From positions 1 through 36,134 of the IMG/VR virus record IMGVR_UViG_3300032257_000060: DNA of 36,134 nt; one strand, given 5' to 3'. Below, one piece after another: positions 2,938 through 34,604 of this stretch; the first letter of the stretch is position 1; each line of letters starts with the position of its first letter. The translations under genes and the position numbers were made by a program. The notes beneath the pieces were generated by a model. The model did no database searches, was not told where the DNA came from, and saw only the letters and a list, made by a program, of their open reading frames with translations. Origin of the DNA: a virus (Duplodnaviria; Caudoviricetes).

Positions 2938-3242
2938 AGGTTCAAAGCTGGCCAAGCAGAAAAGGCGCTGCAACTCATTACGAGGTTGATTATAGTGTAT
3001 TAGTTGGAAGATTAGGTACAACTGTTTCAACCGTAACATGGAGCGTGGAAAGCGGAAGCGCCACAATTTCAGGCGAAACACTAGCAAGCGGCGTAGCTTC
3101 AGCGCTAATAACAACCGGATCAGAAGACTGCTCTCTTATTAAGCTAGAGGCAGTATTGGCAGACGGTCAAACAGACGTGTTCTTCTTTAAGATAAAGACA
3201 GAAGACCCAAAATGTGTGCAAAGTACAGCAGGGAGATATTAA
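2934..3242 (+). CDS. Putative fibre/adaptor protein (beta-rich)
   Basis: YEVDYS...TVSTVTWSV pattern seen in phage adaptor-like proteins upstream of terminases. Confidence 0.55.
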   Translation: MKVQSWPSRKGAATHYEVDYSVLVGRLGTTVSTVTWSVESGSATISGETLASGVASALITTGSEDCSLIKLEAVLADGQTDVFFFKIKTEDPKCVQSTAGRY

Positions 3243-3249
3243 TCTAACC

Positions 3250-4404
3250 ATGTACAAATACAAAATGATTAATACGAGCGAATTAAATGGTTATAAAAAT
3301 AATGCCAGGACACACTCGCCTGAGCAAGTAAAACAGATTGCCAGTTCTATCAATGAATTTGGCTTTACTAATCCACTATTAATCAACGATAAGAAAACCA
3401 TTATTGCAGGCCATGGCAGAATAGAGGCTGCACTAACATTGGGAATGGATAAAATTCCTTGCATAATAGTAACAAATCTTACGCTCGACCAAGAGAAAGC
3501 ATTAATCATTGCCGACAATCAACTAGCATTAAACGCAGGGTGGGATTTAGATATACTCAAAGCTGAAATTGACGACTTAAGGCTAAACGATTTCGACGTT
3601 GAGCTATTAGGGTTTGATGATGACTTTATAACCGACCTGCTACAGCCAGAGCCAACAGAAGGGCTAACCGATGAGGATGCTGTTCCTGAAGTGCCAGAAG
3701 AGCCAGTAACCGCGTTAGGCGATATATGGGAGCTAGGTAACCATAGATTAATGTGTGGTGACTCTACCAGTATTGACGCTGTTGAAAAATTAATGGATGG
3801 CGTATATCCCGATTTAATACACACCGATCCTCCGTATGGGATGAATGCTGTCACAAAAAGTGGCGTATTATCAAAGAGCTACAAAACAGATATTATTGGC
3901 GATGATAACACTGATATAGCTAAAGACGCTTTTCGCCTTATAAACGGGATGTATCCTGAATCAAAACAAATATGGTGGGGCGCCAATTATTACTGCTCTG
4001 TTCTGCCTGATAGCGAGTGCTGGCTAGTGTGGGATAAAAACAACGGGCAAAGCGATCAAACTGATTGCGAGCTAGCTTGGGCTAATTTCAGGAGTGTTGT
4101 GGGGCAATTCACGCAAGCAAGCGAAAAAACAAACAGAGTTCATCCAACTCAAAAGCCTGTGTCGTTAATGGAATGGATAATTAAAAGATTCAAATTGTCA
4201 TCAAGTACGATAGCTGATTACTTTGGTGGCAGTGGGTCGACATTGATGGCTGCAGAGAAAAACAATACCAAATCATTTAATATGGAGTACGATCCGAGGT
4301 TCTGCGATGTAATAATCAACAGATGGCAAGATTACACTGGACGTCTAGCCATCCATACGGCTACAGGCAAAACATATTCGGAGTTAAAGAATGACAAAGA
4401 ATAA
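3250..4404 (+). CDS. ParB/Srx N-terminal domain fused to a beta-class N6-A/N4-C DNA methyltransferase
   Basis: NARTHS..QV.QIA.SI.EFGFTNP, IAGHGR, ADN.LA (ParB); HRLMCGDST, TDPPYG, HPTQKP, DYFGGSGST (MTase); start moved to ATG 3250. Confidence 0.92.
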   Translation: MYKYKMINTSELNGYKNNARTHSPEQVKQIASSINEFGFTNPLLINDKKTIIAGHGRIEAALTLGMDKIPCIIVTNLTLDQEKALIIADNQLALNAGWDLDILKAEIDDLRLNDFDVELLGFDDDFITDLLQPEPTEGLTDEDAVPEVPEEPVTALGDIWELGNHRLMCGDSTSIDAVEKLMDGVYPDLIHTDPPYGMNAVTKSGVLSKSYKTDIIGDDNTDIAKDAFRLINGMYPESKQIWWGANYYCSVLPDSECWLVWDKNNGQSDQTDCELAWANFRSVVGQFTQASEKTNRVHPTQKPVSLMEWIIKRFKLSSSTIADYFGGSGSTLMAAEKNNTKSFNMEYDPRFCDVIINRWQDYTGRLAIHTATGKTYSELKNDKE

Positions 4405-27466: not shown

Positions 27467-28021
27467 ATGAAACCAAATAATAAAGGTGTGATAAACCAAG
27501 AAAATCTGATGTCTTTGCTGCACTATAATAAGGTCACCGGAGTGTTTACATGGAGAAAACGTGACGCATCCTTGTTTGCATCAGCACAAGCAGAGAGGAT
27601 GTGGAATAAACGCTACGCAGGGAAGGAGGCAGGAACAGTCCGTCAAGAACCTGGCGGCTATAGGGTTATTCTTATAAATGGAAGAAAATACATGGCTCAT
27701 CGTTTGGCGTGGATGTATGAGTATGGCAAGATTCCAGAAGGGTGTATAGATCACATCAATTGCAATAAATTGGATAATAATATATCAAATCTTCGTGAGT
27801 GTACTATGTCAGAAAACCTAATGAACTCCAAATTAATGCGCGGAACTATGTCTGGGATAAAAGGGGTGCATTTACACAAGCCATCCGGAAGATGGCAGGC
27901 GAGACTTAGGTATGACGGAAAGAATAGGCATGTTGGTAGTTATGGCACAAAAGAGGAGGCGAAAAATGCAATTATTGCCAAGAGAAATGAGGTTCACGGG
28001 GAGTTCGCCAGACATGAGTAA
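27467..28021 (+). CDS. HNH homing endonuclease with an AP2-like domain
   Basis: AHRLAW...IDHINCNKLDNNISNLRE; SGIKGVHL...RWQARL...HGEFAR. Confidence 0.92.
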   Translation: MKPNNKGVINQENLMSLLHYNKVTGVFTWRKRDASLFASAQAERMWNKRYAGKEAGTVRQEPGGYRVILINGRKYMAHRLAWMYEYGKIPEGCIDHINCNKLDNNISNLRECTMSENLMNSKLMRGTMSGIKGVHLHKPSGRWQARLRYDGKNRHVGSYGTKEEAKNAIIAKRNEVHGEFARHE

Positions 28022-28584: not shown

Positions 28585-28897
28585 CGCAACAACAGACAGC
28601 ACAGGCAATATGCTTTACTCAGTCAACACAAGTGGCAAGTTTAGAGCGAGGCAATTAACATCTAAAACTATTGGCGTATGGGATTATGTGTTACCCGGTA
28701 AATCAAAAACCGTTCAATTAGTCACATTACTAGGTGATTCAGCCTATGACCTGCTGGCTAGACACATTCACGAAAGCGAGAAAATACCACTAGGCGCAAC
28801 GGTTAATATTAATCGCTCAAGCCGAGTCGTTGAAATCAAGGTTAAGCAAAACAAGCGAGACTATCGATTATTCTCAGGCGCGATATATAGGAAGTGA
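28571..28897 (+). CDS. Hypothetical protein
   Basis: GGAGGT SD before ATG 28571. Confidence 0.65.
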   Translation: MTTANATTDSTGNMLYSVNTSGKFRARQLTSKTIGVWDYVLPGKSKTVQLVTLLGDSAYDLLARHIHESEKIPLGATVNINRSSRVVEIKVKQNKRDYRLFSGAIYRK

Positions 28898-28925
28898 TAT
28901 GAGCAAAATAGCGGGAGGTAAAATA

Positions 28926-29933
28926 ATGCCAGAGGATAAATCAATGAACGTACTAGATTTGTTCTCTGGTATTTGACTCGGAGGCTTCGCATTAGCATCA
29001 CATCCACATGGATTTAAAACAGCAGCATTCTGTGAATACGACAAAGACGCCCAAGCAGTATTGAAAAAGCGATTTCCAGAAGTGCCAATAATTAACGATA
29101 TTAAGGAGTTAGTGTTTTGCCTAGAACATCTAAAAGAAAATCAGATGCTGCCAGAGAAAATCAAAAAAAAGCTGTTGCAGCGAGAGTTAAGAATGGAAAT
29201 GTTGAGTGCGTCTGCAAAAACTGTGGCAAGCAGTTCAACACACCAAAAAGCTACATTGCAAAAGGTGGCGGAAAATTCTGCTCTAACAACTGTCGATATG
29301 TTTTCAAGCGAGGAGACAACGGAGCAAACGCAGGGGGTGGGGCATGGATGCTCGGAGAAAATAACCCCAATTATATTGACGGCAAATCCTCAGAGCGGAA
29401 AGAAGGGCGCGTTAGATACGCAAAAGAACTCAACCAATGGAGAAGAAGGGTTTACGCAAGAGATGGATACCAGTGCCAGGAGTGCGGAATCAAGCCAAGA
29501 AAACAAGGGCAGCTTAACGCCCATCACATCAAGCACTGGGCAACGCACGAATCGTTGCGATTCGATATTAACAACGGAATTACAGTCTGTATTGACTGTC
29601 ACAAAGCAATTCATGCAAGGGGGAATTGATGTCGTCACAGGAGGGTTTCCATGCCAGCCAGCTTCAGTTGCTGGGGCAAGAAAAGGAAGGGAAGATGAGC
29701 GATGGCTCTGGAATGAGATGTTTAGAGTTATACAAATTGCACGTCCAAAATGGGTTATCGGAGAAAATGTATCTGGGCTTATCACGGTTGATGAAGGGCT
29801 GGCATTCGAGAATGTGTGTCTTGACCTGGAAAGAGAAGGTTACACCGTACAAACGCTTATTATTCCAGCTTGTGCCAAAGACGCGCACCACAGAAGAGAC
29901 AGGGTTTGGATTATTGCCCACACCAACATCTAG
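28926..29933 (+). CDS. C5-cytosine DNA methyltransferase, N-terminal (alpha) part with motifs I-VIII; in-frame TGA at 28974 and a ~170-codon insert
   Basis: GGAGGT SD then MPEDKSMNVLDLFSGI*LGGFALA...FCEYD...NDIKEL-[insert]-IDVVTGGFPCQPASVAG...DERWLW...VIGENVSG...HRRDRVWIIA. Confidence 0.85.
29117..29629 (+). CDS. HNH endonuclease with a Zn-ribbon, nested in an alternate frame of the MTase
   Basis: CKNCGKQF...KFCSNNC, GENNPNY, WRRRVYARDGYQCQECG...LNAHHIK...FDINNGITVCIDCHKAIH; AAGGAG SD 8 nt before TTG. Confidence 0.9.
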   Translation: MPRTSKRKSDAARENQKKAVAARVKNGNVECVCKNCGKQFNTPKSYIAKGGGKFCSNNCRYVFKRGDNGANAGGGAWMLGENNPNYIDGKSSERKEGRVRYAKELNQWRRRVYARDGYQCQECGIKPRKQGQLNAHHIKHWATHESLRFDINNGITVCIDCHKAIHARGN

Positions 29934-30423
29934 TGACGGCACATCGGGCGGAGTTATTGGAAAAAATGACACATATTATCAAACATCTGGACTGCCAAGA
30001 AAGATAACGCAAAACGGTGTTGATGGATCGGTTGGACTAGGCAGGCTTGTGCAAATGTGGCCAACACCTAACGCCGGAGACGATAGAGACAGAGGAAATC
30101 TGTCAAATCCTTGTATTCAAAGGCGAAAGGAAATTGGCAAGCAAATCATGTTGAGCCAGTGTGTTAGTGAAGAATCAGGCAGATTAAACCCAGATTGGGT
30201 CGAGCCTCTAATGGGCTATCCAGTCGGCTGGACTGATTTAGAAAAGGATAATGTAACGCATGAGATAACTGAGTTTGTTGGTAATCCTGACGATTCAGGC
30301 GAGCCAAGAGTAACAACTAGATCCGACTTAAGAGCCAAACGACTTAAGCAGCTTGGAAACTCAATAGTTCCACAGGTGGCCAGCGAGATATTTAAAGCAA
30401 TCAGGAGCATAGAAGATGAATAA
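29629..30423 (+). CDS. C5-MTase C-terminal (beta) part: target-recognition region and motifs IX-X
   Basis: LLPTP and WPTP repeats, GRLNPDWVEPLMGYPVGWT, RLKQLGNSIVPQVA; ATG overlaps the HNH stop (TGATG). Confidence 0.85.
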   Translation: MSSQEGFHASQLQLLGQEKEGKMSDGSGMRCLELYKLHVQNGLSEKMYLGLSRLMKGWHSRMCVLTWKEKVTPYKRLLFQLVPKTRTTEETGFGLLPTPTSSDGTSGGVIGKNDTYYQTSGLPRKITQNGVDGSVGLGRLVQMWPTPNAGDDRDRGNLSNPCIQRRKEIGKQIMLSQCVSEESGRLNPDWVEPLMGYPVGWTDLEKDNVTHEITEFVGNPDDSGEPRVTTRSDLRAKRLKQLGNSIVPQVASEIFKAIRSIEDE

Positions 30424-33963: not shown

Positions 33964-34001
33964 AACATGCTTATTGGTAATAATAGCTAAAGGTGATAGT
34001 T

Positions 34002-34604
34002 ATGAAAAATTGCATCAAATGCAACACTAGAAAAAAAGAAGAGCAATTCCACAAAGACAGCAGAAGGCCTGACGGTTTATTCCCATACTGCAAAAAATGC
34101 AGGCAAATACCAAGGAAGCCCGCAAAGTGCAGGCCGATTAAAGAAGTTCTTTCTAACTATAGAGTTGCAGAAAACGAGTGTTGGGAATGGAGTGGAACGC
34201 TTGACATAGATGGATATGGCGTTGCCTGCTTCAAGGGGGAGCGGCAAAAAGCCCATAGGCTTAGTTTTTCACACCATGTTGAACCAATTAAGCAGGGCCT
34301 AATTATATGTCACAAATGCGACAATCCTTCCTGTATAAATCCAAATCACTTGTACCAAGGAACAAGCCAAGACAACACTAACGACATGATAGCAAGAAAA
34401 AGGCAAAATCCGCCCATAGGAGAAAGGTCTGGCAATGCGGTTTTGGAAATAGAGCAAGTAAGAGCGATAAAGCACGACCCAAGAAGGCATAATAAAATCG
34501 CTATGGATTACGGAATAGCGGCATCCACTGTAAGTAGCATTAAGACTGGCAGAAACTGGTCGCGCGCATTAGGTGAGGCTGATAGAAATGCGAAAGCAAT
34601 TTAA
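34002..34604 (+). CDS. HNH endonuclease with a Zn-finger N-terminus and HTH C-terminus
   Basis: CIKC...FHKD...CKKC; CWEWSG..DGYG...AHRLSF...CHKCDNPSCINPNHL.QGT..DN.NDM. Confidence 0.92.
   Translation: MKNCIKCNTRKKEEQFHKDSRRPDGLFPYCKKCRQIPRKPAKCRPIKEVLSNYRVAENECWEWSGTLDIDGYGVACFKGERQKAHRLSFSHHVEPIKQGLIICHKCDNPSCINPNHLYQGTSQDNTNDMIARKRQNPPIGERSGNAVLEIEQVRAIKHDPRRHNKIAMDYGIAASTVSSIKTGRNWSRALGEADRNAKAI

Follow-up and report, generated by a model that had tools for sequence, protein, structure and literature searches.

Can a C5-methyltransferase gene still yield its enzyme when a stop codon interrupts motif I, a nuclease gene lies nested within it in a second frame and the other subunit overlaps it in a third? 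The question is raised by a locus in a 36,134-nt virus record (hereafter the window, i.e., the whole stretch that was analyzed), which is listed under a microbial mat run and carries terminase, P22-like portal, capsid and ERF/YqaJ genes identified by Pfam. An initial annotation had described methylase alpha, an HNH gene and methylase beta in three different forward frames, all of which were found in place (Table 1), and had read them as one integrated system. On balance, we favor reading the locus as the gene of a two-subunit phage cytosine methylase with a stop-first 6-nt insert in motif I and a nested HNH gene, which was likely invaded twice by homing nucleases and whose insert is likely hopped by ribosomes. 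A contig from run X1, possibly the source of the record, matched the window over the whole stretch. A contig from another study (X2) matched positions 28786-28975 with zero differences; since it ends two bases into the TGA, its independent support for the motif I insert is weak.

Table 1. Positions of the features of the methylase locus in the window.
Feature	Positions	Strand	Remarks
Probable relic of a lost upstream nuclease cassette, 18 nt	28911..28928	+	Contains alpha SD and ATG
C5-methyltransferase alpha	28926..29933	+	Motifs I-VIII; one TGA at codon 17
ATT (Ile), predicted take-off codon	28971..28973	+	Role inferred
TGA CTC, 6-nt motif I insert (stop and predicted landing triplet)	28974..28979	+	Coding predicted to resume at GGA 28980
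AAGGAG, SD of the HNH gene	29103..29108	+	Built from alpha motif III Lys-Glu codons; 8 nt before the TTG start
Nested HNH endonuclease gene, 170 aa, TTG start, +2 frame vs. alpha	29117..29629	+	PF01844, phrog_1271
SD-like AAGGGGG, HNH stop TGA and beta ATG (TGATG)	29617..29631	+	Host Gly-Gly-Ile-Asp-Val codons
C5-methyltransferase beta, +1 frame	29629..30423	+	Overlaps alpha motifs IV-VIII by ~100 codons

The two methylase chains

Alpha matched PF00145 (E 1.6e-33); it is preceded by the SD GGAGGT (28914-28919), starts at ATG 28926 and ends with the TAG at 29931-29933. The stop-containing 6-mer reported earlier for motif I was confirmed as TGA (28974-28976) plus CTC (28977-28979), so that the motif reads F-S-G-I-stop-L-G-G, and 318 open codons follow the insert up to the TAG. 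When aligned with ten insert-free relatives, alpha showed two additional codons in motif I and approximately 160 additional codons between motifs III and IV; its Pro-Cys lies at 29649-29654. A model with the stop read through kept the C5-methylase core, with an rmsd of 2.8 Å to M.HhaI over 103 columns, and gave pLDDT values below 50 for residues 121-211, the middle of the insertion. Since no relatives of the alpha-frame peptide across the HNH gene were found among 226 candidates, this peptide looks like filler. From its sequence, the gene is predicted to encode an active methylase enzyme.

Beta, from the ATG at 29629 to a TAA ending at 30423, matched the phrog_1008 DNA methyltransferase (E 6.4e-28) and had no Pfam match. 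Its C-terminal part gave weak matches to phrog_363 and phrog_116, and no match to its end was detected among solved structures. It contains the variable region as well as two stretches (30184-30222 and approximately 30352-30400) which, by motif consensus, we take to be motif IX-like and motif X-like. Motifs I-VIII are located on alpha and the putative IX and X on beta, the layout of a two-chain split. M.AquI shows the same division, with motifs I-VIII on alpha and the variable region, IX and X on beta, and in M.EcoHK31I beta overlaps alpha in another frame, as in the window; unlike the window, neither a nested nuclease nor a stop insert is mentioned for these enzymes in the available portions of the sources (PMC3404938, PMC2836561).

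The initial annotation had also reported that the HNH stop overlaps the beta start. This overlap is present, but the TGATG derives from host Ile-Asp-Val codons and also occurs in 3 of 18 insert-free clusters. Since the +1 beta frame was open in 15 of these 18 clusters, where no HNH was detected, the two-frame alpha/beta layout is, judged by sequence, a family trait. The further claim that beta translation depends on the HNH gene was not borne out: the beta frame and the TGATG exist without HNH, and an SD-like AAGGGGG of beta's own lies 5 nt ahead of its ATG. A translational coupling of HNH and beta is nevertheless possible.

Elsewhere in the window, a ParB-N plus N6/N4 methylase gene lies ahead of the terminase (3214-4404), its PF01555 match covering the last third only. 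Over the whole window, GGCC, CCGG and GATC were depleted to 0.37, 0.55 and 0.62 of the Markov expectation, respectively; the depletion of GGCC and CCGG was considered as a pointer to the methylase target and does not identify it.

The nested HNH gene and the host frame

The nested gene, which ends with the TGA at 29627-29629, matched PF01844 (E 1.4e-8) and phrog_1271 (E 4e-19) and retains the His-His, Asn and Cys-x-x-Cys-His residues of the active site; by sequence, it thus has both the domain and the active site of an HNH homing endonuclease. Its SD is formed by alpha Lys-Glu codons (AAG GAG), as had been pointed out before. This detail is less distinctive than it seems, an SD-like word at motif III being present in 2 of 16 insert-free clusters. 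Two further HNH genes in the window, at 27467-28021 (HNH_3-AP2) and 33993-34604 (HNH_3), are free-standing.

Across the HNH gene, the alpha frame contains no stops vs. 6.2 expected by synonymous resampling (P(0) = 1.5e-4), and all 14 stop-risk codons are in the stop-avoiding NTY form. None of 32 equal-size blocks in other window genes was open, and in the two free-standing HNH genes this frame is interrupted by 10 and 15 stops. An out-of-frame nested nuclease with an open alpha frame was found at two further loci, L401 and L207. These results support the earlier view of a mobile nuclease that resides in a gene without splicing and keeps the host frame open. They argue for translation through alpha, either now or in the recent history of the cassette. 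With regard to splicing elements, the ~480 nt of extra DNA are filled by the HNH ORF, which leaves no space for a ribozyme, and a Pfam search of alpha gave no intein match.

Relatives of the window HNH comprised six weak loci in viral contigs and 76 annotated-phage records with less than 60% identity, and only distant empty genes (52-57% identity) were available for its insertion site. No second locus with the exact nested arrangement was found in sequence searches of viral contigs, alpha-frame peptide candidates and annotated phages. As 4 of 150 family representatives bear methylase motif remnants (P0006 starts with motif I, and P0008, P0023 and P0029 end in IX or X), the nested HNH probably specializes in methylases and came in separately; conceivably, it targets motif I as well. 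Apparent motif VIII matches in the same remnant scan were discarded as false, being the HNH's own residues.

Inserts and nucleases among phage C5-methylases

A starting set of 46 loci was fetched by similarity to the catalytic half of alpha. In one of them, L052, motif I is interrupted at the matching site by a stop and one further codon; in another, L040, such an insert separates the catalytic Pro from the Cys in motif IV. Viral, metagenome and genome collections were then scanned with patterns that fixed Ile or Pro as the codon before the insert, and the matches were filtered with a profile of 33 insert-free proteins. For motif I, 56 of 154 pattern matches were genuine, a count to which the record of the window contributes and in which one contig appears twice; 46 of the 56 belong to one gut-phage family. 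For motif IV, 97 of 164 matches were genuine, with TAA in 40, TAG in 31 and TGA in 26. TGG, which the motif IV pattern allowed, was found in none of the 97 vs. 30 of 67 background rows, which indicates that a stop is required in these inserts. Twelve genuine motif IV matches came from genome records labelled Clostridia, Bacteroidota and Pseudomonadota, among others, which are mostly metagenome bins with uncertain host labels. The strict motif I pattern with TGA gave no viral matches, and a looser one gave two, both rejected as background.

Scans free of insert length returned 96 rows for motif IV, among them 80 inserts of 6 nt (many of them loci from the earlier motif IV pattern scan), 2 of 7 nt and 8 of 9 nt; all 90 of these genuine inserts were stop-first. 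The 66 motif I rows comprised 31 stop-first inserts of 6 nt, 18 stop-first inserts of 5 nt, five sense-first inserts of 6 nt, two of 4 nt, one of 1 nt and nine rows below threshold, i.e., 49 stop-first among 57 genuine rows. Four "4-nt" motif IV rows (register artefacts) and one motif I row scoring 24 were dropped, and the 1-nt row, L474, was kept as insert-free. Within one family (L163/L491/L475/L495), stop and sense interchange, the first inserted codon being TAG, TTA, CGG or CTA.

Random decay of the homologues had been named at the outset as the sign of a pseudogene; instead, the stop insert recurs and is linked to nucleases. Motifs IV-VIII are open in 22/22 motif I and 63/64 motif IV clusters, and pN/pS was 0.18-0.29 in insert-bearing vs. 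0.15-0.34 in insert-free genes (pairs with at least 60% identity). By these measures the insert-bearing genes appear as constrained as insert-free ones, although frames would also be intact, and pN/pS low, if selection had acted before a recent insertion. In a quick tree (89 columns, few resolved forks, 22 of 111 clusters left out), the motif I label was patchy, with 14 changes, 4 of them forced by strong branches.

The same data bear on the suggestion that the insert is a knock-out scar, which shields the gene from the nuclease at the price of killing a dispensable methylase, the matched last triplet being a decayed insertion duplication. The inserts do occupy the two least dispensable motifs, the conservation could predate a recent sweep, and a duplication accounts for the exact Pro-stop-Pro cases. 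However, landing positions 1-2 hold a purine in only 1 of 97 motif IV inserts and position 3 varies freely, cassettes rebuild a full motif I and a start codon ahead of the stop, 85 of 86 clusters (motifs I and IV together) are intact through motif VIII, and the alpha frame stays open across the HNH gene. We therefore regard a scar as unlikely.

To quantify the nuclease link, loci were clustered at 90%, a nuclease was counted if just upstream, nested or close downstream, and six clusters with short flanks were excluded. An HNH or HNH-type gene was detected in 60 of 86 insert clusters (61 of 87 before removal of the L526/L461 duplicate) vs. 0 of 18 insert-free clusters. The corresponding Fisher P of 1e-8 overstates the association, as two of the five nuclease profiles were built from insert-bearing loci, the clusters share ancestry and the insert-free set is small. 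In 26 of the 87 clusters no nuclease was detected. Motif I inserts, whose co-occurrence with a nested HNH the initial annotation had proposed to survey, are recurrent and nuclease-linked (15 of 21 clusters), and the nuclease is usually upstream (12 of 14 HNH-positive clusters).

A test independent of the insert patterns employed 121 proteins in which an HNH lies in frame between motifs III and IV (the best 120 of 337 matches plus one longer match). In this set, 102 end at the motif IV Pro, and 13 (P0186, P0189, P0199, P0214, P0265 and others) end one sense residue past it, a further insert type at the protein level. FPCQ occurred in none of the 121, in a search that is weak for long fusions. 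In L040, L081, L119 and their relatives, an in-frame HTH-HNH located between motifs III and IV has its own SD-like word and Met, and the motif IV stop is also the nuclease stop.

An empty/filled pair was found in L032 and L290, whose flanks are 96% and 93% identical. The ~570 nt extra in L290 consist of the old methylase 5' end, an HNH-type gene (phrog_8446) and a new insert-bearing 5' end, which is the layout of a MobA element. The HNH-like family of L290, also assigned to phrog_8446, has no Pfam HNH match, scored 87-91% against HNH profiles in hhalign and is a predicted nuclease. In its members at L290:1927-2448, L182, L476, L504, L506, L516 and L519, Y-E/D-W/Y-A-N replaces the His-His pair.

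The window itself may preserve a trace of such a gene. Positions 28911-28928 are identical to the 3' end (R-E-V-K-stop) of the HNH_3 gene upstream of the methylase in L475 and L491; the similarity to this nuclease tail stops just upstream of 28911, and no nuclease precedes alpha in the window. The motif I insert was thus probably left by a since-lost upstream nuclease, although the 18 nt could possibly be shared by convergence, since the ribosome-binding site lies within them. Given this tail and the usual upstream position of nucleases at motif I inserts, we consider it likely that the insert and the nested HNH arrived separately, in two invasions.

This speaks against the single integrated system of the initial annotation, in which the nested HNH would target motif I, the insert would be its immunity element and HNH translation would drive beta. 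Such a system would find a parallel in P0006, which begins with a motif I remnant, and in L207, which also combines a motif I insert with a nested nuclease; moreover, distance is no obstacle, given the 20 nt that separate the protecting insert of MobA from the nick. It is, however, at odds with the relic, with the upstream nucleases in 12 of 14 clusters and with the beta frame and TGATG in genes without HNH, and strikes us as decidedly improbable.

Under two separate arrivals, a nuclease gene would have entered at the methylase 5' end and substituted that end with one carrying the motif I insert, as is seen in a relative, and would later have been lost in the window except for its last codons. 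By analogy with MobA, we infer that the insert protects the target by disrupting the nuclease site within a motif that tolerates no change at the protein level. A second HNH gene would then have inserted between motifs III and IV, taking the host Lys-Glu codons as SD; the layout is observed and the order is our reconstruction. With HNH codons that keep the alpha frame open, alpha would bear a largely unstructured loop of ~160 residues, and beta, made from its own +1-frame start, is predicted to pair with alpha as in M.AquI. The "recoding gate" proposed earlier survives in part: target protection has a precedent in MobA/gene 60, but no evidence was found that the insert limits ribosome traffic.

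Decoding of the inserts and comparison with known systems

The last triplet of the motif IV inserts is YYN, which permits pairing with Pro-tRNA (G:U allowed), in 96 of 97 cases and in all ten inserts of 7 or 9 nt. Similarly, all 26 distinct motif I inserts offer at least two of three pairs with the Ile anticodon, for a chance of 0.375 each (0.625 for 5-nt inserts). All landing triplets of 6-nt motif I inserts code for Ile, Val, Leu or Met, which readthrough would favor too. The CTC of the window is among the weaker matches, with two of three pairs to tRNA-Ile and a mismatch at position 1. No consistent fold, and hence no conserved stimulatory hairpin, was found in 33 motif I segments. A TCN Ser codon was present in all folded-set lineages from Ser-unrestricted scans vs. 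19 of 59 insert-free segments.

A ribosomal hop with re-pairing in the P site would explain all insert lengths, and we judge it the probable mechanism. As in gene 60-type bypass, the stop (TGA 28974) directly follows the predicted take-off codon. Once TGA has entered the A site, the ribosome would stall while Ile-tRNA still occupies ATT; a fraction of ribosomes would slide 6 nt, re-pair on CTC and resume at GGA, by which F-S-G-I-G-G is restored, and the remaining ones would terminate after 16 residues. Unstimulated stop hops are described as low-level in the available part of one report (10.1101/2024.12.09.627546).

If the TGA were instead decoded, alpha would gain two residues in motif I. In the window the insert is in frame and a Leu ahead of Gly-Gly suits motif I, and five 6-nt motif I inserts lack a stop. 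Nonetheless, inserts of 4, 5 and 7 nt are impossible to read through, and these out-of-frame lengths exclude readthrough as the general rule; in motif IV, it would turn the catalytic Pro-Cys into Leu-Cys or Ser-Cys. All three stops are in use in the inserts, and TGA terminates 5 of 15 genes checked in the window genome. Readthrough is thus very unlikely. A recoded genetic code was likewise rejected, since TAA, TAG and TGA all end genes in this genome and all occur in inserts. Removal of the bases before translation, from RNA as a micro-intron or from DNA by slippage between short repeats, would fit the fixed points in conserved motifs and the hairpins around some inserts, but the lengths of 4-9 nt, constant ends consisting only of the first stop and a tRNA-compatible last triplet, the often imperfect repeats, the inconsistent folds and the lack of any joint or deletion over the insert in matched contigs (which drop rare variants) make it highly improbable.

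To our knowledge, few systems use programmed bypass, namely relatives of T4 gene 60, a yeast mitochondrion and the Hau3 terminase. In MobA/gene 60 of T4, according to the accessible part of the source, the bypass insert protects from nicking and can outlast the nuclease (10.1101/2022.08.31.505936; Bonocora 2011 as cited there). The methylase loci resemble this case, as far as it is described there, in an HNH gene within a conserved gene, a replacement gene end, a protective insert with a stop or hungry codon first, and exchanged nucleases. They differ in that MobA/gene 60 has 50 nt, elaborate stimulators and matched codons in a topoisomerase gene, whereas the methylase inserts are 4-9 nt long, often in frame, near-matched, at two motifs and with at least four nuclease types; unlike the MobA host as described, the host ORF of the window is not split by the HNH. 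Membership was rejected, since MobA proteins have 269-279 aa and reside in the topoisomerase large subunit with a 50-nt gap, vs. a 170-aa HNH, a methylase and a 6-nt gap in the window. The window locus would work like a MobA element and is not a member of that group; we read it as a miniature version of a homing-plus-bypass cassette, in which the hop itself is predicted.

Short inserts with a slow codon first are also described for the Streptomyces phage Hau3 terminase (7-10 nt), where bypass has experimental support and UUA can be replaced by UAA in E. coli; in contrast to the methylases, that system is UUA-based, proposed to be regulatory and known from three genes, and the portion of the paper available mentions no nuclease link (PMC10732093). 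Synthetic stop hops, in which matched codons flank the stop and nine nucleotides yield one residue, are presented only as synthetic in the part of a 2016 review at hand, which states that no natural in-frame stop hops were known (PMC5009743). MobE in Aeh1 nrdA and collaborative homing are, in the excerpts available, similar in that a nuclease sits in or beside a gene without splicing of its own and a neighbouring insert gives immunity (10.1101/2022.08.31.505936; PMC10448857). In the window, the host frame continues across the HNH, whereas with MobE the ORF is divided between two proteins (10.1101/2022.08.31.505936), and collaborative homing uses a group I intron (PMC10448857).

We give an even chance to the general proposition that phage C5-methylases carry widespread 4-9-nt hop elements, which would be the first in-frame stop hops known from nature. 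In this view, they would act as splice-free minimal introns, each making an unalterable catalytic or cofactor motif immune to a partner homing nuclease, and would have spread with at least four nuclease types and outlasted them; nested nucleases would also evolve frame-opening codons. No prior report of methylase hops was found in the literature searched, which was covered in part. If the proposition holds, many phage methylase genes now labelled truncated or pseudogenes are active, nucleases have a third way of living inside genes, and the MobA logic of immunity by bypass extends to a second gene family. The dozens of natural 4-9-nt variants also form a series for probing ribosome departure and re-pairing.

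Several loci showed further peculiarities. The single gene at L526:1461-2189 (the L461 locus) has inserts in both motifs, of 5 nt in motif I and of 9 nt in motif IV, along with an in-frame HNH, such that two hops would be needed. In L483, just ahead of motif I, the methylase start H-V-D-L-F-S-G-I is doubled in different frames before the 5-nt insert, which resembles a cassette with its nuclease deleted. Alpha shifts into the beta frame after motif VI, through a frame break, in the four loci L047-L050. Finally, in three contigs (L018, L019 and L025) an otherwise open C5-methylase gene has TGA where relatives carry Trp, at two sites ~150 and 30 nt ahead of motif IV; local TGA readthrough, recoding and shared decay are candidate explanations.
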